Shown in pieces: positions 5,242-13,596 of a stretch of 36,782 nt of DNA. This stretch comes from a virus. The stretch lies in the IMG/VR virus record IMGVR_UViG_3300006969_000007. The stretch is one strand, 5' to 3'. The notes below the pieces were generated by a model, which saw nothing but the letters and a program-made list of their open reading frames with translations, did no database searches and was not told the origin of the DNA. The position numbers and the translations under genes are program-made. Numbering within the stretch: the first letter of the stretch is position 1; each line of letters begins with the position of its first letter.

Positions 5242-5513
5242 TACTTCTTTCCTACGATACTATTTAACTTCAATTTAACTAATATGATACTTTTTTTGTC
5301 TTCCGAATAAGAAAAAGCAAAAGGGCATTCAGGAGTACCATCTTTATACTTCCCTAAGAAAGGAGTAAGATCATGATTTTTTCTTATATTATTGTTATAT
5401 TCTTGTTCTTCTTTGATATGTGCTTCTCGCAAGCGAATAAATTTCTGGGATGCATTACTATCCATAAAACAGCACAATAAAAGGAGATAACCATAATATA
5501 TACTATTCTTCAT
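5241..5513 (-). CDS. Small protein with a hydrophobic N-terminus (signal/anchor), embedded in the tail operon
   Basis: 90-aa ORF with an ATGA overlap upstream and a TAATG overlap downstream. N-terminus is MKNSIYYGYLLLLCCFMDSNA. Confidence 0.55.
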   Translation of the reverse strand: MKNSIYYGYLLLLCCFMDSNASQKFIRLREAHIKEEQEYNNNIRKNHDLTPFLGKYKDGTPECPFAFSYSEDKKSIILVKLKLNSIVGKK

Positions 5514-7840
5514 TCTAACCTCACTGACGTTGGTTGGGTATGTAATACCATTCCTTGTATTTCAAATTCCTGTAATGAAACAGTAGGATCAATCATTTGT
5601 TCTAAACTAAATGATATACCCAGTTGAATATACTCTCCACTTGATTGAAAGTAGATAGGGTGCCATAACAATTCCTGGAATTGCTCAAGAGGATACATCG
5701 TTGGATCATACGGGAATGTTTCTAAAATATTGTTTCCCATGATAGCGCCTGTTTGAACACCGCCATCGATCATAGATACTTCAGACGATGATGGATAATA
5801 ATCAACGGTGATTTCACCAGATGTTGTCTTAACAACACCGAAATCAATACGAGCAAGATATACATTCTGCCCATCATTAACATACGGGTTCCATTGCTTA
5901 CTCTTGATCTGAATATTAGAAACACGCGCTGCCGTTCCCAACCCATTGTACGTACCCGATAATAATCCAGGCACTAGGATTCTAATATTATTGGCATCAA
6001 CAACGGTATATACCTGAAAAATATTACCATTGAGTGCTAGTTCTGTTGTAGCATCCCCGTCAACATCTTCGATGAGAATGAAATCCATATCATAATCAAA
6101 CTCAATAGGTTGATCGGTAAGATTATGACTTATGATGGTCAGAGTCAGTGACTGATCACCATTAAAGGTAATATTAGTAATTTGCATCGATGCTGCATTA
6201 CGTGATATTTCAGTATCAAGAACCAATACGAATCCCTCAGGAGTACCGAATAAAATATCACGGTGCTGTCCTTGAATTGAGTTACTATTCCAGGCAAATG
6301 TTGCTTCTGCCCATTCTAGTGGATCTGAAGATGCCCATGTCATGTCAGTTGATTGTTCTAAATACCCAAATGTCGTTGCACAATCATCATTGATCGCCCA
6401 CGTGCCATTCTTATAGTTATACACTAATATTTGATTAGGGAATGTTTGCGTCGCTTGTTCAAGATCATCAACATAGGCCCAATATACTAATTCAGTATAG
6501 TAATCTCGGATACCTGCCGTGCGCTGTGTCGCATTGTTATCAAGCTCCATCTCAAATACGGTTGTTGGTATGTTATCATCGATACGAACAACATTTGATC
6601 CGTTACATGCATGAACGCCTGTTTGACCAATCGTCAAAACATCTTTATCAAATGAGATAGAGCTGAAAGTCGATTGCGATCCTAATTCATTATTAATTTT
6701 TTGCCATATAAAGGGACCGACTTGGTTACCGGTATATACTAATTCCCAGGTACTTCGTTCAAAATAAACAATAAGCCGATCTTTGATGAATTCCGCTGAT
6801 ATAATTTGTTCTTCCGTTGATGCATCAACAACACCACCACCAGCACCAACATTAGGAACGTTATCTGCTTGTGCTCTTTCATACCATGCATTGACGGCGA
6901 ACGGCGAACCATAAAAACAATACCGTGCACGATTGGTATACGCAGTATTAACACCCGCACCACCACTATTATCATTTTCTATAGTGCTTAACAGTACTAA
7001 TCGATTCTTAAAAGGAACAATCATTCGTGCTGTCTTAACATAAGGACCAGTATGAATCGCGCCACCAGCTGGTCTGAAATAAAATGCATTCGCACCCGAT
7101 GCAGCAGTCCACGTTGTTCCATCAAAAAACCAAATAGGATCATCATTCGCACCTGGTGTTGGCACCGTCGCATTGTAATTAGTAACAAATAAATATTTTG
7201 TACCTACTAATCCCTGCCAGTTAGTAACCCAAAAATAGTTCAGATTAGTACCATGCCATATCGCGGTACCAGATCGCCCCCATGAAACACCTGAAAATAC
7301 GTAGGCATACCGCATATCAAATGCATAGGTCGGATGATTATTAACCGCGTTAATTTCATACTGACTAATACCCATAACCGGAAGGCTTGGATAGAAAAAA
7401 ATAGTAGTCGTTGCTGGTCCACCGGTAATCGTAAAATCACCATTGCTAATATTAAAAGTACCGGATCCCATCGTTGCTAGCATCGCTTGCACACCAGCAA
7501 CTGCTGAAATAACCGTGTACATTTCATCATCAATAGAAAATGCTTGTCCAACCGCTAATGGTAGTGACGCGTCACCTAAAATAGTACGCACATTACCCGC
7601 AGCAGCTCCTGCACCACTCGTAATACCAACTCCTGCGCCACCAGCAGCAAGTGAAGCACGAAGTCGTGTTTCAAATTGGGTGAATCCCATCATTATGGAT
7701 CCGTATCGTTTTTTTAATCTGCTCCTAAATACATATGCATTCTGGAGATAATCAAATGCTTCATCAGGTATTAACCATGGTGGTGCATTTTTTGTAAGTC
7801 CCGAATTAATAGGTGCGATTAAAAAACGATCGAATGCCAT
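5510..7840 (-). CDS. Large virion structural protein (tail hub/nozzle candidate)
   Basis: 776-aa ORF, the largest protein in the structural operon. The function assignment rests on position only. Confidence 0.6.
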   Translation of the reverse strand: MAFDRFLIAPINSGLTKNAPPWLIPDEAFDYLQNAYVFRSRLKKRYGSIMMGFTQFETRLRASLAAGGAGVGITSGAGAAAGNVRTILGDASLPLAVGQAFSIDDEMYTVISAVAGVQAMLATMGSGTFNISNGDFTITGGPATTTIFFYPSLPVMGISQYEINAVNNHPTYAFDMRYAYVFSGVSWGRSGTAIWHGTNLNYFWVTNWQGLVGTKYLFVTNYNATVPTPGANDDPIWFFDGTTWTAASGANAFYFRPAGGAIHTGPYVKTARMIVPFKNRLVLLSTIENDNSGGAGVNTAYTNRARYCFYGSPFAVNAWYERAQADNVPNVGAGGGVVDASTEEQIISAEFIKDRLIVYFERSTWELVYTGNQVGPFIWQKINNELGSQSTFSSISFDKDVLTIGQTGVHACNGSNVVRIDDNIPTTVFEMELDNNATQRTAGIRDYYTELVYWAYVDDLEQATQTFPNQILVYNYKNGTWAINDDCATTFGYLEQSTDMTWASSDPLEWAEATFAWNSNSIQGQHRDILFGTPEGFVLVLDTEISRNAASMQITNITFNGDQSLTLTIISHNLTDQPIEFDYDMDFILIEDVDGDATTELALNGNIFQVYTVVDANNIRILVPGLLSGTYNGLGTAARVSNIQIKSKQWNPYVNDGQNVYLARIDFGVVKTTSGEITVDYYPSSSEVSMIDGGVQTGAIMGNNILETFPYDPTMYPLEQFQELLWHPIYFQSSGEYIQLGISFSLEQMIDPTVSLQEFEIQGMVLHTQPTSVRLE

Positions 7841-7841
7841 A

Positions 7842-8453
7842 TTAATATCCTATCGCTAAATAATAAAAACTCACTGCCGCCGATCCTGTCGTACTTCGTG
7901 GTGATCCCCATGCAGTAAAGTTTGCATTGGTAATCGCGACCAATCGTACTGCTAAATCAGTATCTAAAGCACCTGCTTGCAGTACCGTTAATTGAACACT
8001 TAAACAGACGGTAAATGCAGGCCCCGCAAATGCTATCACCGCAGATCCATTTGCTGTTCCTGGACCCCATTTTAATATAAGACCAGAAGGCAAATAGGTG
8101 TAGCCATCCGTTCCCAATAATGGTGTTGCCGTACCAAGGGTCGAAGCGGTTGATGGTATTTGTGCAACACCAGAAGCAAGGGTTTTATTAATGTATAATT
8201 CATCTCGCGTTGATGTCACATTATTAAATGCGTACAGGGCCACATCACCAGCAGGGAACGAAGAACCTGCCGGCGGTGTAGCACCTTGATTGGGGAAATA
8301 CAGCCAATTAAATCCAGAAGTACTATTAATAGAAGCGCTTGCAGCACTTGCGTTGCCTGCAATAGCGCCAAGGATAGTAAAATTGTTTAATATATTACCT
8401 TGTGAAATGGATAATTTATCAGTTGATTGCGGAATAAGTGGCAAAAAAGCCAT
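7842..8453 (-). CDS. Tail fibre-like / receptor-binding-like structural protein
   Basis: 203-aa ORF. The N-terminal STDKLSISQGNILNNF motif and the C-terminal LPSGLILKWG pattern recall short phage fibre proteins (from memory). Confidence 0.5.
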   Translation of the reverse strand: MAFLPLIPQSTDKLSISQGNILNNFTILGAIAGNASAASASINSTSGFNWLYFPNQGATPPAGSSFPAGDVALYAFNNVTSTRDELYINKTLASGVAQIPSTASTLGTATPLLGTDGYTYLPSGLILKWGPGTANGSAVIAFAGPAFTVCLSVQLTVLQAGALDTDLAVRLVAITNANFTAWGSPRSTTGSAAVSFYYLAIGY

Positions 8454-8462
8454 GATATCTCC

Positions 8463-9602
8463 TTAAAGACTACTACCGCCACTGCCCCATCCACTAAATC
8501 CGCCTGTTGTTGGAGACGTTTGTTCAGTGTAAATAGTAGCAACGCGTTCATTGGTATATTGTACAATTGTTCTACGGCCTATCAATCGTTCTTGTTCTTT
8601 CAATGCAGGAAGCAGCAGTTGAACGCTATCCATGTCCATACGATCTTCAAGAATCTTTTTTGCTGCTGAAAATGCTATATATTGCCAGTACTCTTCAAGC
8701 TCAGGGCTTTGAGACGTTGCCAAAAGAGCTGTTGGTCGTTTATATACCTCTATGTCGATTCTATATGGCTGATCAGGAACCGGACGTATTACAAATGTAT
8801 TGCCATAATAAAGCATTGCCTGTGGCATACCAAGTCTTTGATTATTAGTCTGGCTGTTAATAGGAATCCCTGATCCTGGTGCAGTACCAAACGTAATCGT
8901 GTACACGCCGGTAGCGTAATTGATTGTATTAGTCACATCGACAACCGTTGGCGGAGCCAGCAGCGCTGCTTGATACGCAGCAGATGCAGGATCATATAAA
9001 TTACCATCAACCGTAGGATTACCGGTAGTTGCATTGATGACTGGCACATCAACCAATGCTAAGCCGTTCAAATTTGAATCAGCAGAATCAAAAAGTACTT
9101 GCCCTTGTACCAAGCCAACATTCTGAATAACATTCCCTGGCGTCGATTGTAGAGCATTTACGACGCCAGTAAATGAGGTAGTCACACCATCACCTGCATT
9201 GGCTGTCAATGCGATGGAGTTCACATTTGGATAATATCCGTAAAATTGTTCCCGCGATTGGGTGTACAGGGTTTGATAACCAGCAACATAAATTGGCGGA
9301 TGAACTGAGATATATTTGTTCTGAAAGTTATAGAGTGGATTATAAACAATCGTTGGATTCGCTACTGGATCACCGAATGATATCTCATCAGTACGGTAGG
9401 TATCTTGGTAGGGATTCGTGTAAAATGCAAAAGTTGTTCTGAGATTAAATGTCCTTAGATGCTCAGGAAAATCATACACAACAAAGGTGTTAATGTAATT
9501 TTGAAGATCAAGATCAGTAAGCTGAGCAGTAGAAGGAGAACGCGTGAGACGCCTTACCTTCGTTTGTATTGCCTGTAATGTCGTTGTTGGTGGTATTGGC
9601 AT
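8463..9602 (-). CDS. Virion structural protein (adaptor/tail candidate)
   Basis: ATG at 9602 lies 8 nt after AAGGAG; the track start at 9608 is a TTG. 379 aa. Confidence 0.6.
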   Translation of the reverse strand: MPIPPTTTLQAIQTKVRRLTRSPSTAQLTDLDLQNYINTFVVYDFPEHLRTFNLRTTFAFYTNPYQDTYRTDEISFGDPVANPTIVYNPLYNFQNKYISVHPPIYVAGYQTLYTQSREQFYGYYPNVNSIALTANAGDGVTTSFTGVVNALQSTPGNVIQNVGLVQGQVLFDSADSNLNGLALVDVPVINATTGNPTVDGNLYDPASAAYQAALLAPPTVVDVTNTINYATGVYTITFGTAPGSGIPINSQTNNQRLGMPQAMLYYGNTFVIRPVPDQPYRIDIEVYKRPTALLATSQSPELEEYWQYIAFSAAKKILEDRMDMDSVQLLLPALKEQERLIGRRTIVQYTNERVATIYTEQTSPTTGGFSGWGSGGSSL

Positions 9603-9614
9603 AACCAATTCTCC

Positions 9615-9974
9615 TTATAAAAGATTAATCTCAGCGGGAGCAAGCGTATCATTATTTGAGCCAATCGGTACAGATAATCCACATACATTTATTTTGGAAG
9701 ATAACCCAACGGGAATAACAAATGGTGCAAATTGTGTTGTATCAATAGTAATAGTAAATGTTGTAGGACTCGTAACAACAATCGGAGAGGTCATTTGGTC
9801 TAACTGAATCATGCCTAAAGCTGGCGGTATATCAAACCTCACGACCGTTCCATTTGGATAACCATGGGCAAATGAAGTAGTTACCAGAGCAAAAGGACTG
9901 TTCGTGATTGCGGTAATAATTCGCATGGCTGGACCATAAACAGGATCCGTATAGGCATAACACTGATAAGCCAT
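9615..9974 (-). CDS. Small beta-barrel structural protein sharing a domain with the 367-aa protein
   Basis: HGYPNGTVVRFDIPPALGMIQLDQMTSPIVVTSPTTFTITIDTTQFAPFV parallels HGMTPGQEIRFSIP...MIQLNGLSAIVLSVTDDYNFVINIDTSAFNTFV in 10499..11602. Confidence 0.65.
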   Translation of the reverse strand: MAYQCYAYTDPVYGPAMRIITAITNSPFALVTTSFAHGYPNGTVVRFDIPPALGMIQLDQMTSPIVVTSPTTFTITIDTTQFAPFVIPVGLSSKINVCGLSVPIGSNNDTLAPAEINLL

Positions 9975-10000
9975 GATCTCTCTCCTTGTTAATAATTACA

Positions 10001-10426
10001 CTACTTTAAAAATGTTACCGTTTCAATATTCGATGGTGTTAATTCTGCTATATCATTGGAGTCCATAAAATCTAATGGTTCAAATGAACAACGGCGCTTT
10101 TTCTTGGTGATCTGAATAGAAGGCAATCCCTTATCATCCATTTTATACGCGTGTTCAGGATACCAACAATTATTGGATAAATGATGCGCAACGCCACGCG
10201 GAATAGTATAAATAGATCCATCATTTAAAGTATATGTTTCTATTTCGTCTTCCTTATATTTTCGGAAAGAAAACGCCATAGTCCCATTGGGGACTTCAAA
10301 AAATCTAAAAATGCCCCGTACCATTTCACGGTCTTTGTCTCGCATGTACTTAAGATCTTTTTTTGTTTTTTGATTGGTCTTAGCCGCATTGGTCTCAGCG
10401 GTTCCTTGCAATTTTCCATCTGACAT
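10001..10426 (-). CDS. Conserved-looking hypothetical protein in the head module
   Basis: 141-aa ORF with SD AGGAAC upstream. No family recognised. Confidence 0.6.
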   Translation of the reverse strand: MSDGKLQGTAETNAAKTNQKTKKDLKYMRDKDREMVRGIFRFFEVPNGTMAFSFRKYKEDEIETYTLNDGSIYTIPRGVAHHLSNNCWYPEHAYKMDDKGLPSIQITKKKRRCSFEPLDFMDSNDIAELTPSNIETVTFLK

Positions 10427-10452
10427 GGAGTTCCTTTCTATAATTTTACAAC

Positions 10453-10474
10453 GGGGAAGGCCGTCGCCCTCCCC
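10453..10474 (-). terminator. GC-rich hairpin after the 367-aa gene (attenuator/terminator candidate)
   Basis: GGGGAAGG/CCCTCCCC stem with one mismatch. The U tract on the minus strand is weak. Confidence 0.35.
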
Positions 10475-10498
10475 TTAATGTGACATTAATTAAAAAGT

Positions 10499-11602
10499 TT
10501 ATAGTCCGCCGTAAGATGACTTACCAGCAACCCAATAAACAACATCAGCAGCAGCAGTACCCGCAGGACCACTAATTGCTAATGCACCAGCAACGGTACC
10601 AACCCCGCCAGTACCAAGAACCATACCAAGGAATCCAGTATTAACGGTAGCATCGGCAAGGATACCTGATTGCGTTCCATTAATTTGTATTCCTCCAATA
10701 GTAGGAACCTGTGACGCAGGAGTTGATAATGATGTTGCGGTATCTTCACCAAACGGCACCATAAGTGGGAATGATGAAGGTTGTTGCGCAACAGTAGGCC
10801 ATACAAATGTATTGAATGCTGATGTATCAATATTGATAACGAAGTTATAATCATCCGTTACCGATAAGACGATAGCACTCAAGCCATTCAATTGGATCAT
10901 GCCAGGGTTACCAATCACCAACGTTGGAATAGAGAACCGAATCTCTTGTCCCGGTGTCATGCCATGAGCAATAGAGGTACTCACGGTTGGTGTTACGGCG
11001 TTTGTGATATTAACCACCACACGTCGACGTGGATAGAAAAGTTCTGATGTGTTAACAATGCGGTAGAAACCAGCACCACCAACTACACCAGGAACATTCG
11101 CTAATGGGTTAGTCGCCGTAAGTAAGGTGAAACTCACATTAGTGGTGACCGCACCAACGACCATATCGATACCATTAACATCAGTTTGTGCAGTATTGCT
11201 CATACGAACAACACTTCCTACAACAATACCAGCCGTAGATGCTGTTGATACAACAGGGCGAACAGCATTAGTAGACGCTGTTGTCGCGACTGCATTACCA
11301 ATTAACGGTAAAGCTCCTGCAGTTTGTCCTGATGGATCATAAAGAGTAAAACCACCAGATACTAACGTATCACCACTCATAACGGCAGTTGCGTTACCAT
11401 AGTAGTTAACAACACCGGTTCCGGGAGCCATACCACGTTGCCAGTAGTAACTGACACCTAAACCAGTAGCACCACCGACTTTTGCTGCATTGGTGTAGTT
11501 AAGAACCTTCATCCAATCAACGCCAGATGGTATTTTGATATATTGATTTACAACGGTTGCAGGGACTACAAACGAACCCTGACCTATAATAGTTCCGTCC
11601 AT
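10499..11602 (-). CDS. Head decoration / head fibre-like protein with two internal beta-barrel repeats
   Basis: 367-aa ORF immediately downstream of the capsid gene, with the repeated domain shared with 9615..9974. Confidence 0.55.
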   Translation of the reverse strand: MDGTIIGQGSFVVPATVVNQYIKIPSGVDWMKVLNYTNAAKVGGATGLGVSYYWQRGMAPGTGVVNYYGNATAVMSGDTLVSGGFTLYDPSGQTAGALPLIGNAVATTASTNAVRPVVSTASTAGIVVGSVVRMSNTAQTDVNGIDMVVGAVTTNVSFTLLTATNPLANVPGVVGGAGFYRIVNTSELFYPRRRVVVNITNAVTPTVSTSIAHGMTPGQEIRFSIPTLVIGNPGMIQLNGLSAIVLSVTDDYNFVINIDTSAFNTFVWPTVAQQPSSFPLMVPFGEDTATSLSTPASQVPTIGGIQINGTQSGILADATVNTGFLGMVLGTGGVGTVAGALAISGPAGTAAADVVYWVAGKSSYGGL

Positions 11603-11612
11603 ATTATCTCCT

Positions 11613-12293
11613 TTAAGCTAATGTTGCGCGTAAGTTAATTACCCACAAGTCATTAGTAATTCTTGGAACTTCAGCAAATTTGTAACCAACCGACGCGTTC
11701 AACGCTAATGGTCCATCATAAATCGGTGGTCGATAAATAAAGCTTGCTGAGTAACCGTCTTGCTCAATGCATGCGTATGCTTCCATACCAACACAGAAAA
11801 TGTTGAATACATTGGCACCATTTGAAGATGCATTAGCAGTAAAGCTACCAATAGATGAAATCAAGAATCGAAGGTTACCAATAGCACCCCATTCTGAACG
11901 CAATGCATTCATTGGCGCAGGGTATTGGTTCTTTTGAATGAATCCAGCAACGGCATCAAGATTACCAGTCAATTGTGTTGAACATAATGCAAAGTATGCA
12001 TCACGAACTGGTGCTGTACCGAATTTGTCTTCACCTTCGATGTTGTCCATAATCGTGTACGCATTATTGTTTAATAAAGTACGAACGACAGCATCCACAT
12101 CAGAACGGGTAATTTCAGTCGGATTATCACCATTAACACCACCAACACTATTAATAAAACCAGCAGTTGCTGCTAACATATCACGAGTTAATTGGTCTTC
12201 GGTTTGACGAAGAGATACACCAAGACGAGCAGCACATTCATTAAGAACAGGATCTTGGTTCTGCAGTGTGCATTTAACTGTTACTTTTTTTGA
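11613..12293 (-). CDS. Major capsid protein, exon 2 (226 aa; HK97-fold / N4 gp56-like pattern)
   Basis: The frame is open from 12293. There is no start codon for the first 38 conserved codons (SKKVTVKCTLQNQDPVLNECAARLGVSLRQTEDQLTRD). The rest is the 188-aa track ORF. Confidence 0.75.
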   Translation of the reverse strand, partial: SKKVTVKCTLQNQDPVLNECAARLGVSLRQTEDQLTRDMLAATAGFINSVGGVNGDNPTEITRSDVDAVVRTLLNNNAYTIMDNIEGEDKFGTAPVRDAYFALCSTQLTGNLDAVAGFIQKNQYPAPMNALRSEWGAIGNLRFLISSIGSFTANASSNGANVFNIFCVGMEAYACIEQDGYSASFIYRPPIYDGPLALNASVGYKFAEVPRITNDLWVINLRATLA

Positions 12294-13125
12294 CCAAATA
12301 TTTTCTATTTGGCGGTTGGTCTTGTTATTCCCAACTCCCCTAGTCTCCTAAGGGATCGGACTGTCGCTTCACCTCTCGGTGTCCACTCGCCTCAGTCTCT
12401 CAGCGTGATAATTTAATTTATTTATGGTACGCTATATCCATACATTAAAATGAAGGAAAACTATGCATGACGAATTCTCATACTTATCACAAAATAATTC
12501 AGAGCAACAACTAATAAGAGATTTGAAAATAACAACTATGAGCTATCTTGCTGGAATTGTAGACGGAGAAGGATGCATTGGATTAGAACATCTTTCACCG
12601 ACTAAAAATAGAAAGAAAGATTATTACGTATGCCGACTTACCGTAGTTAACACCAGTGAAGAACTAATGAAGTTATTAGTGTCTAGCCTCAAAGGGCAAT
12701 ATGATACAAGAAAAAAGATAGAAGGCAGAAAGACTTGTTATAGATGGCATGTTTTTGGTAAAGACCTAGAACAAGCTATCTTGGCCTTGTTGCCTTATTT
12801 GCGTATCAAAAAGAAACAAGCGAAATTAGTTCTCGAATATAGAAATACAGTAGCAAGCAATGGTTGGCTCATTAGTGATGATGTACTTGCGCATAGAAAA
12901 ACCATTTGGATTGAATGTAAGAAATTAAATACCATAGGTGGTTAAATTATCTTCGCCCTTGTCGCCCTCGTCTTTACGTTAGGGCTTCCAAGTCAATCAG
13001 AGCGGATTTAAAGCAGGCCATTTACTGCTAAAACCAAGAAATTTCAAAGAACAATCGTCGTTAACCTGCTCGTTCAACTGTACATAGGTCTATAATAAGT
13101 CGAACTCATACGGCACCTACTTTTT
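12294..13125 (-). mobile_element. Group I-like self-splicing intron (832 nt) carrying an antisense LAGLIDADG gene
   Basis: P1 pairs exon/intron UACGGU|A with UGCCGUA (plus-strand 13125-13131 with 13109-13115), with U.G at the cleavage site. The intron ends in G at the tip of a 7-bp hairpin CCAAAUA/UAUUUGG (12294-12312). Further stems are 12315-12335, 12338-12354 and GUUCGAC/GUUGAAC. Joining the exons gives an in-frame 314-aa capsid protein. Confidence 0.65.
12463..12945 (+). CDS. LAGLIDADG homing endonuclease, single-motif (I-CreI-size, 160 aa), antisense to the capsid gene
   Basis: Contains the motif SYLAGIVDGEGCIG. SD AAGGAA lies 6 nt upstream of the ATG. It sits inside the capsid-gene interruption. 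Confidence 0.8.
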   Translation: MHDEFSYLSQNNSEQQLIRDLKITTMSYLAGIVDGEGCIGLEHLSPTKNRKKDYYVCRLTVVNTSEELMKLLVSSLKGQYDTRKKIEGRKTCYRWHVFGKDLEQAILALLPYLRIKKKQAKLVLEYRNTVASNGWLISDDVLAHRKTIWIECKKLNTIGG

Positions 13126-13389
13126 ACCGTAAAAACTAATAACTGCATCAATATCTACCGCAGTAAGATTTTGGGCAGGAGGAGTAATACCAGAATTCCC
13201 TAAAGGAACCATCGCTGTGTTAAGCGGATTGTATCGACGCATACGAAGAGTTGTACCACCATTACGCGGCATATTCTTCTTCATTGCGGGGATCTTATGG
13301 ATCATATTAGGAACTGGTACTGAAAGTAGTTTGTACGAGAAACTTTGCTGCACTGGTGCAGGCAGTGTACTCGTAGTTGTGATAGCCAT
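13126..13389 (-). CDS. Major capsid protein, exon 1 (88 aa, ends ...AVISFYG)
   Basis: AAGGAG lies upstream of the ATG at 13389. The N-terminal pattern is QQSFSYKLL...GGTTLRMRRY...LTAVDIDAVISFYG. The unspliced frame stops 2 codons later (TAG at 13117-13119). Confidence 0.75.
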
Positions 13390-13397
13390 AATAGCTC

Positions 13398-13427
13398 CTT
13401 AAGTAATAAAATAATTTTTTACTTAAG
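13398..13427 (-). promoter_or_regulatory. Perfect 9-bp hairpin abutting the capsid gene SD
   Basis: CTTAAGTAA (13398-13406) pairs with TTACTTAAG (13419-13427). On the mRNA the 3' arm runs into AAGGAG. Confidence 0.4.
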
Positions 13428-13596
13428 ACTGACGAGATCTCACATTGCGTCATCGGCGGACGAATTCCGATTTACGTCCAGACAATTTCAGATTGCTAAT
13501 CCGAACTTTCATGCAGATTGGAAGAACGACTTCCAAATTACGTTCATACGTAGGATATAATGAAGAAAAAAGAGAAGCAAGTAGGAAAAATAGGAG

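Follow-up and report, generated by a model that had tools for sequence, protein, structure and literature searches.

The locus considered here raises the question of how a phage capsid protein is made from a gene whose reading frame is broken. In IMG/VR record IMGVR_UViG_3300006969_000007 (36,782 nucleotides (nt); the whole stretch is referred to below as the window), the major capsid gene lies on the minus strand at 13389–11613 and, unspliced, is read as two open reading frames (ORFs): one of 90 amino acids (aa) at 13389–13117 (minus), ending ...DIDAVISFYGKK*, and one of 188 aa at 12179–11613 (minus), which begins with ATG and holds the remainder of the capsid protein (both from the ORF list). 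Relative to intact genes there are two insertions, termed Ins A (36 nt, 13125–13090) and Ins B (793 nt, 13063–12271), and the best explanation, which we hold to be fairly likely, is that Ins A is a core-less mini-intron spliced by the ribozyme of its neighbour Ins B.

Two insertions and a 26-nt exon

The interruption of the capsid gene is real: at least 24 contigs from independent samples (ENA, JGI and Logan), 36–37 kb contigs among them, share the 90-aa N-terminal ORF and the identical split arrangement, and seven fetched copies carry 1–4 base differences from the window across 1,777 positions. More than 100 intact capsid proteins of 314–317 aa are 85–91% identical to the joined product, and in all 13 intact homologues aligned the sequence reads ISFYG-TYVQLNEQV-TLQNQDPVL, with TYVQLNEQV nearly invariant. 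The initial annotation had proposed a single 832-nt group I-like intron directly after this YG; its core idea, a group I-type intron that breaks the capsid gene and makes splicing necessary, holds, but the single intron is replaced by two inserts split by a 26-nt exon, the codons for TYVQLNEQV being found inside the proposed intron at 13089–13063, 36 nt past the GGU codon of G88. With junctions placed by codon-level inspection of split against intact capsid genes, joining 13389–13126, 13089–13064 and 12270–11613 gives 315 aa without gaps, with 294–295 of 315 identities to the intact homologues P0001 and P0004, compared with 285–287 of 315 and one gap for the single-intron join. The exons and insertions are as follows.

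13126–13389, minus strand: exon 1, M1 to G88 (ORF list; ungapped alignment to intact homologues)
13131–13126, minus strand: 5′ strand of P1(A), UACGGU, the final six bases of exon 1
13090–13125, minus strand: Ins A, core-less mini-intron of 36 nt, absent from intact homologues and collected in 92 variants
13064–13089, minus strand: mini-exon of 26 nt, ACC UAU GUA CAG UUG AAC GAG CAG GU, encoding T89 to the first two bases of V97
13089–13084, minus strand: stretch of the mini-exon that pairs with the P10(A) guide
13079–13072, minus strand: 3′ strand of helix X, within the mini-exon
13070–13064, minus strand: 5′ strand of P1(B), AGCAGGU, within the mini-exon
12271–13063, minus strand: Ins B, group I intron of 793 nt (boundaries, covariation and family hidden Markov model (HMM))
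11613–12270, minus strand: exon 3, in which C12270 completes the Val97 codon, followed by T98–A315 and the stop (homologue alignment)

Among the 27 related loci listed first, the mini-exon is in frame and changes only conservatively. No start codon is present in its 26 nt, nor in the first 30 codons of exon 3; the 38 start-less codons of the initial annotation thus become about 30 when counted from the true exon start at 12270. The predicted spliced capsid protein would contain the junction-spanning stretches FYGTYVQLNEQVTLQNQ and ISFYGTYVQLNEQVTLQNQDPVLNECAAR.

A mini-intron without a catalytic core

In the window, Ins A reads AAAAA-GUAGGU-GCCGUA-UGA-GUUCGACU-UAUUAUA-G, carries in-frame UAG stops and is composed as follows.

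13125–13121, minus strand: loop
13120–13115, minus strand: P10(A) guide, GUAGGU
13114–13109, minus strand: guide sequence, GCCGUA
13108–13106, minus strand: linker, UGA
13105–13098, minus strand: 5′ strand of helix X, GUUCGACU
13097–13091, minus strand: loop
13090, minus strand: terminal G

Variants were collected with a specific DNA pattern scan, a looser pattern having given mostly chance matches, and amount to 92 distinct elements of 28–59 nt, whose lengths divide between the three modulo-3 classes as 23, 29 and 40. The P1 helix at the YG codons was correctly recognised in the initial annotation, with UACGGU (13131–13126) paired to GCCGUA (13114–13109) and a U.G pair at the junction, an arrangement found in 92 of 92 related elements; it is, however, the P1 of the core-less Ins A and not that of the large ribozyme intron to which it had been assigned. 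All six pairs form in every variant, in one variant through a compensatory change (UAUGGU/GCCAUA). The P10 guide pairs with the first 4–6 bases of the mini-exon, with 3–6 contiguous pairs in 91 of 92 variants, and the third base of the Thr codon and its guide partner are likewise Watson–Crick in 91 of 92 (C-G 60, U-A 11, G-C 11, A-U 9), while a terminal G precedes ACN in every case. Because this is the classical P1/P10 arrangement, the ligation junction is fixed at G88|T89, and removal of Ins A from the RNA at U|...G| is considered highly probable.

No P3–P8 core of its own was found in the 28–59 nt of Ins A, and only one core in the window is matched by the family HMM; past P1 and the guide, what is left of Ins A is a 3-nt linker, a short loop and, between them, one strand of helix X. 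In two more distant capsid genes (related loci L034 and L035), G88/T89 is occupied by full-size members of this intron family, in which P3 directly follows a P1/P10 layout like that of Ins A, so that Ins A resembles a full-size intron minus its interior and, judged from these sequences, looks like the remnant of a sister intron once present at G88/T89. As speculation, Ins A may have been kept since its presence spoils the target site of the endonuclease that belongs to the 88/89 intron.

Long forms of Ins A (52–59 nt; L218, L228, L297 and L322) have an added hairpin in the P1 loop (GCUGCUUAAGCAG) and, by eye only, a pairing of GGAGG after the 5′ splice site with CCUCC before the terminal G, which would join the two ends of the mini-intron.

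Two other readings of the 36 nt were rejected. Read-through or recoding of UAG cannot account for insertions whose lengths fall in all three modulo-3 classes; in addition, no transfer RNA (tRNA) genes were found in the window, and its remaining ORFs are intact under the standard code. An intein is ruled out by the stop codons and frame changes.

A helix tethers the mini-intron to the next P1

The 3′ half of Ins A pairs with the exon downstream, forming helix X, which in the window joins GUUCGACU to AGUUGAAC. Cognate pairings have a mean energy of −11.5 kcal/mol, against −7.8 kcal/mol for tails combined with the exons of other loci. In a strict automated test, 73 of 90 elements had a P1 at 0–3 nt from helix X, against a background of 11%, and the exon strand of helix X adjoins the P1 of the following intron at no fewer than eight different splice sites, including AGCAGGU (97/98), AUCCCGU (105/106), UGUCGCU and AGAUCCU. 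Among the 90 elements with enough flank, the family core motif lies downstream in 75, and a downstream P1 and intron were recognised by reading of the listing in the remaining 15; the partner introns include other core subfamilies. In L323 an intron at site 97/98 occurs without Ins A; the large intron is thus independent of the small one. In an energy-only (minimum free energy) fold of 13140–13008, P1(A), helix X and P1(B) all form, the last two contiguous with zero unpaired bases between them. The sequences thereby establish the anatomy of the region, its exact junctions and its pairings: two splice-site pairs of group I type, one core and a conserved tether.

The downstream group I ribozyme

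Ins B is almost certainly a group I intron, and its boundaries are very probably those given here. These boundaries follow the form GAGCAGGU|U...G|N-ACN in 16 of 16 distinct loci (21 listed) with an intron at site 97/98. Its P1(B), AGCAGGU/GCCUGCU, contains a U13064.G13018 pair; U.G is invariant in 16 of 16 introns at this site and in 12 of 12 relatives at other sites, while the other six P1 pairs covary. The first exon base and the P10(B) guide covary as well (A-U 10, G-C 5, U-A 1), with mismatches in none of 16. The parts of Ins B are listed below.

13020–13019, minus strand: P10(B) guide
13018–13012, minus strand: guide sequence, GCCUGCU
13006–13000 with 12388–12382, minus strand: P3
12992–12989 with 12961–12958, minus strand: P4
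12985–12981 with 12968–12964, minus strand: P5
12957–12954 with 12405–12402, minus strand: P6
12951–12946 with 12412–12407, minus strand: P6a
G12399 and 12397–12394 (A12398 bulged) with 12362–12358, minus strand: P7
12381–12378 with 12373–12370, minus strand: P8
12354–12349 with 12342–12337, minus strand: P9
12335–12331 with 12319–12315, minus strand: P9a
12312–12306 with 12300–12294, minus strand: P9b
12271, minus strand: terminal G

Covariation was assessed in two sets. For the subfamily of the window (16 sequences, ORF trimmed out, structure P1, P10 and P3–P9b), 94.9% of cells are paired, against 36–42% for slid partners, and 33 of 61 pairs change on both sides. The wider ribozyme family has 50 members in the fetched loci, at many other sites of the capsid gene, 12 of which are endonuclease-free and about 210–230 nt long. 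In this endonuclease-free set, for which the named structure comprises P1, P3, P4, P6, a bulged P7 and P8, with P3 and P7 crossing in a pseudoknot, 96.7% of cells are paired, against 34–47% for slid partners, 20 of 30 pairs change on both sides, all seven P3 pairs among them, and none of 500 shuffles matches the observed score. P7 has the form G(A)GACU/AGUCC with A12398 bulged, and the pair adjoining the bulge varies between G-C, A-U and U-A in the endonuclease-free set and between G-C, C-G and A-U in the 16-sequence set; P7 is the predicted guanosine-binding site, and we take GAGACU and AAGCGACAGUCC in this region to resemble the classical R and S elements. With an HMM of the 12 endonuclease-free relatives, the window is matched only at 13021–12949 (E 9e-16) and 12410–12339 (E 5e-8), which indicates a single core, split by the endonuclease gene in the P6 loop.

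Several further features recur among these introns. At site 97/98 most have a P1 loop enlarged by an insertion of 45–50 nt, in which UCUUUGAMAU and GGUUUUG are conserved (window 13063–13019), and introns with this insertion have the P9a loop GAAUAACAAGA (window 12330–12320), whereas in the relatives L113 and L016/L129, whose P1 loop is short, the P9a loop differs; this co-occurrence suggests a candidate tertiary contact. A 3′ tail, (A)AAAGUAACAR followed by 3–6 variable bases and the terminal G, is near-invariant family-wide (window 12293–12271), and GGUCA just 5′ of this motif could pair with UGAC of the J3/4–P4 region. Possible long-range pairings, GGCG/CGCC and UGAC/GUCA, were noted by eye only. 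Capsid genes of this phage group have up to four or five interruptions each, at no fewer than a dozen different codons; the intron-rich genes (L010, L013, L016, L039, L047, L049, L067, L070, L102 and L113) carry a single ribozyme family, and that of L113 has three interruptions within 17 codons.

A model for removal of both insertions

From these pairings we infer how the two insertions are excised, in which order, and that Ins A depends on Ins B. The core of Ins B would dock P1(A) and P10(A) first, and two transesterifications, guanosine attack and exon ligation, would remove Ins A; Ins B would then dock its own P1, external guanosine would cut after U13064, terminal G12271 would enter the guanosine site of P7, and the exon would be joined to C12270, the product of both excisions being the 315-aa capsid protein. 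Helix X would hold the splice sites of Ins A beside the ribozyme of Ins B and, seen from Ins A, helix X and the P1(B) hairpin would fill the positions of P2 and P2.1 in an ordinary group I intron. The proposal would require that Ins A leave first, that the excised ribozyme stay bound or that it work in trans. That Ins A relies in cis on the core of its neighbour is considered rather probable; we lean, if only slightly, towards the wider proposition that Ins A represents a class of dependent or satellite group I introns of 28–59 nt, made up of P1, P10, a terminal G and a tether helix, which the core of the next intron would excise in cis before itself.

Several points weigh against this proposal. 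It draws on sequence and pairing evidence, from which splicing is predicted. We are aware of no group I ribozyme demonstrated to process a second, upstream intron in cis, and targeted literature searches returned no report of a group I element that lacks a core, is tethered to a neighbouring intron and is presumably served by it. Splicing of Ins B first would remove the core and strand Ins A, so that the order must be assumed, and the position of the terminal G of Ins A, 5′ of the core, would make its access to the guanosine site topologically unusual. A collection of 15 billion proteins does not contain the exact spliced protein and thus gives no sign of a complementary DNA or of an intron-less twin. 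Proximity of helix X to P1(B) is, in the window, partly a necessity because the mini-exon is only 26 nt long; the stronger evidence for the tether is provided by loci with mini-exons of 51–85 nt. The core of Ins B is also atypical for the Rfam group I model RF00028, no match being obtained at E<=10 in Ins B or in a 194-nt endonuclease-free relative.

The weight of this last result depends on the performance of the model. At its gathering threshold RF00028, which had been suggested as a check of the intron, gave no group I match in the window, nor in any of 20 related loci, yet its verdict carries little weight: the td and nrdB introns of phage T4 were likewise missed (Rfam 15; control locus L324, T4 132000–150000, 5500–13500). 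As a scan at this threshold misses the T4 controls, its null result is not strong negative evidence. In permissive mode T4 td scores 40.3 bits (E 2.5e-8; cut-off 50), and the Ins B family, which does not score, is therefore more divergent from RF00028 than td. RF00028 is a detection model and not a structural definition, and group I membership was here made to rest on structural features; scans that rely on it systematically miss ORF-containing phage group I introns.

Among rival explanations, removal of Ins A at the RNA level without a neighbour in cis is unlikely, and would take place either in trans, through the excised intron RNA that is plentiful late in infection, or autonomously, with Ins A as a minimal group I-like intron such as the fungal rDNA introns of 56–81 nt are claimed to be. 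Ins A needs no particular partner, since its neighbours span several core subfamilies, and for small introns of Phialophora, which have P1, P10 and a 3′-exon pairing, splicing in vitro has been reported in one case (PMC3160393). Ins A nevertheless lacks P7 or any other guanosine site, whereas the fungal mini-introns are described with P7, and 90 of 90 flanked Ins A elements precede an intron, with helix X abutting its P1 at eight or more sites, a pattern that favours a tether over free diffusion or autonomy. Very unlikely is a ribosomal hop across the 36 nt, of the kind known from programmed translational bypass in T4 gene 60, with the P1(A) hairpin as take-off stem-loop: the window does place a Gly take-off codon within a hairpin with UAG two codons on, and gaps of 28–59 nt resemble the 50-nt gap of gene 60, but no matched landing codon is present (take-off GGU, against UAG, CCG, AUG, AAG, ACG, UUG and others as the triplets before ACN), covariation between guide and first exon bases, Watson–Crick in 91 of 92, is the P10 pattern of group I introns and has no role in hopping, and Ins A shares homology with the 5′ end of the full group I introns that occupy its site.

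The remaining possibilities fare worse still. That the gene is dead, as a pseudogene in a defective phage, or that the capsid is assembled from separately translated pieces, is highly improbable: the unspliced reading does give ORFs of 90 and 188 aa, but the arrangement is nearly unchanged in full-length genomes from many samples, the mini-exon keeps its frame with conservative changes only (in the 27 loci mentioned above), the mini-exon and the first 30 codons of exon 3 lack a start codon, and no second capsid gene was found in the window. The single 832-nt intron (13125–12294, 314 aa, junction FYG|SKKVTVKC) is scarcely credible, even though joining 13126 to 12293 is in frame and gives 314 aa as had been claimed, its 5′ end has a genuine P1, and a G stands at 12294. 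This join deletes TYVQLNEQV, which is in frame and conservatively varying, and the ungapped alignment anticipated across YG|SKK is not obtained, SKKVTVKC replacing TYVQLNEQV in a product one residue short; G12294, formerly taken as the end of the intron, is the last base of the covarying 7-bp P9b hairpin inside Ins B, and the covarying P10(B) and invariant terminal G put the 3′ splice site at 12271. Tandem introns or a twintron with two complete ribozymes were rejected on the grounds of a single core and a 36-nt Ins A.

An antisense homing endonuclease gene

The internal ORF that the initial annotation placed within its intron is present, although its position on the plus strand, antisense to the capsid gene, had gone unstated.

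12463–12945, plus strand: LAGLIDADG homing endonuclease gene, single-motif, 160 aa, in the P6/P6a loop and antisense to the capsid messenger RNA

The product matches Pfam PF00961 with E 1.4e-4 and 23.1 bits, exactly the cut-off; its nearest PDB structures are I-MsoI (E 2.9e-10) and I-CvuI (3.6e-8), and I-CreI also matches. The motif is YLAGIVDGEG, with D34, G35, E36 and G37 invariant across 17 homologues. The claim that the flanks of this ORF are richer in guanine plus cytosine (GC) is true in relation to the ORF itself (0.42 and 0.40 against 0.35) but not in relation to the exons (0.41–0.43) or the window (0.40).

A near-identical genome, L005, keeps about 170 nt of the intron at the 5′ end and about 130 nt at the 3′ end with a different antisense endonuclease gene, 32% identical, between them, and the endonuclease ORF is thus a swappable passenger of the loop. 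Comparison of 12402–12957 in the window with 3264–4140 in L005 puts the break-points at the base of P6, both strands of which change together (GGCG/CGCU in the window, GCGC/GCGU in L005); the endonuclease gene and P6 stem thereby appear to behave as a cassette that moves independently of the intron. Capsid genes 85–91% identical occur both with and without the intron, and an intron-less site is found in the L001 capsid gene around GAACAAGTTACCTTACAA. The antisense LAGLIDADG enzyme would cut such intron-less alleles and so spread Ins B.

Further contents of the loop were observed. In Logan ERR15459711 a 309-aa double-motif LAGLIDADG gene and a 68-aa ORF stand in the same place, and in some family introns the LAGLIDADG gene is replaced by a small sense-oriented Cys-rich ORF in the P6 loop, with two CxxC pairs (L323, about 10120–10300; L016/L129, about 6352+970; L102; for example MDINYNWDMIEFTCKKCNQ...CGECYKKY). 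The sequence TTATTTATGGTACGCT lies at 12418–12433 (plus strand), 30–45 nt 5′ of the endonuclease start, is kept in loci with the same endonuclease type and occurs once in the window; AAGGA is found 7 nt before the endonuclease ATG. No sigma-70 promoter or terminator was detected for the antisense endonuclease gene.

Genomic setting

The capsid gene is accompanied by genes for a portal, a large terminase and structural proteins, as in an ordinary tailed-phage structural module. Megablast of the window against isolated phages gave no match, and tblastn gave matches to capsid proteins only, at identities of 26% or less; as judged by sequence, the phage belongs to an uncultured lineage.

Comparison with known systems

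The introns of T4 td and nrdB are self-splicing introns of group IA2 with P7.1/P7.2 extensions and encode I-TevI and I-TevIII. Like Ins B, they are group I introns in phage protein genes with an endonuclease gene in a peripheral loop; unlike in Ins B, their endonuclease genes are sense-oriented and belong to the GIY-YIG and HNH families. In the bypass of T4 gene 60, a short untranslated gap in the coding sequence is associated with a Gly codon in a hairpin and a nearby stop; it requires matched take-off and landing codons, absent here, whereas the pairings described above are those of group I splice-site selection.

A closer counterpart of Ins B is the intron in the major capsid gene of the Cluster J mycobacteriophage LittleE, for which splicing was demonstrated by reverse-transcription polymerase chain reaction and N-terminal sequencing (PMC3706429). 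It is likewise of group I type and lies in a capsid gene; the exon ends in U and the intron in G, and the bottom strand, antisense to that gene, carries a LAGLIDADG-like ORF. The differences are that LittleE has a single intron, no upstream mini-intron being reported, and that phage and host are unrelated. A capsid-gene intron in lactococcal phage Tuc2009 is cited in the same paper, so that the rarity of capsid-gene introns in phages, as stated in the initial annotation, stands with the qualification that they are documented (LittleE, Tuc2009; PMC3706429). By itself the large intron adds another mobile group I member to a kind already known from phage capsid genes.

For Ins A, the nearest likeness is with the ‘degenerate’ group I introns of fungal small-subunit ribosomal DNA (rDNA; Phialophora PaSSU and others), of 56–81 nt, with P1, P7, P10 and a 3′-exon pairing (PMC3160393). 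Both are very short and retain P1 and P10; the fungal mini-introns, however, are described with P7, are self-splicing alone, reside in nuclear rDNA and have no partner ribozyme, whereas Ins A is shorter (28–59 nt), has no P7 and is always followed downstream by a complete intron. In fungal mitochondria, group I introns are described in tandem, side by side or as twintrons, with a proposed stepwise ‘ratchet’ splicing (PMC7902536, which cites Hafez and Hausner 2015). These share two close group I units, successive removal and a short intervening exon or pseudo-exon, but both of their modules are complete from P1 to P9, unlike the present pair, in which one unit is core-less and helix-tethered to the P1 of the other. 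The twin-ribozyme introns GIR1/GIR2 of Didymium and Naegleria (PMC2219692) likewise unite more than one group I-derived unit and a homing endonuclease gene in one intervening region; there, two catalytic RNAs serve one splice-site pair, whereas here one catalytic RNA is accompanied by two pairs.

Implications

The new feature of this locus is the mini-intron, a candidate set of group I splice-site signals without a ribozyme, supported by covariation and tethered beside a complete intron. The Ins B family, present at a minimum of 12 sites in the capsid genes of this phage group, is a blind spot of the Rfam group I model. L113 (IMGVR_UViG_3300031716_000272) packs a mini-intron of 29 nt, an exon of 26 nt and an endonuclease-free ribozyme of 194 nt into about 330 nt (minus strand, roughly 1660–1330), a compactness that makes the system unusually testable.

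If the core of the neighbour removes Ins A, a group I ribozyme serves a second splice-site pair in nature, and a natural group I ribozyme would turn over on two substrates per transcript. Gene finders would then go on mis-calling such genes, a stop-containing insert of 28–59 nt being easily taken for a frameshift or an assembly error. Self-splicing introns could decay to dependent ones that are tolerated in an essential, highly expressed gene, and cores could be lost without loss of splicing, in parallel with the step by which group II introns gave way to core-less introns that rely on shared machinery.

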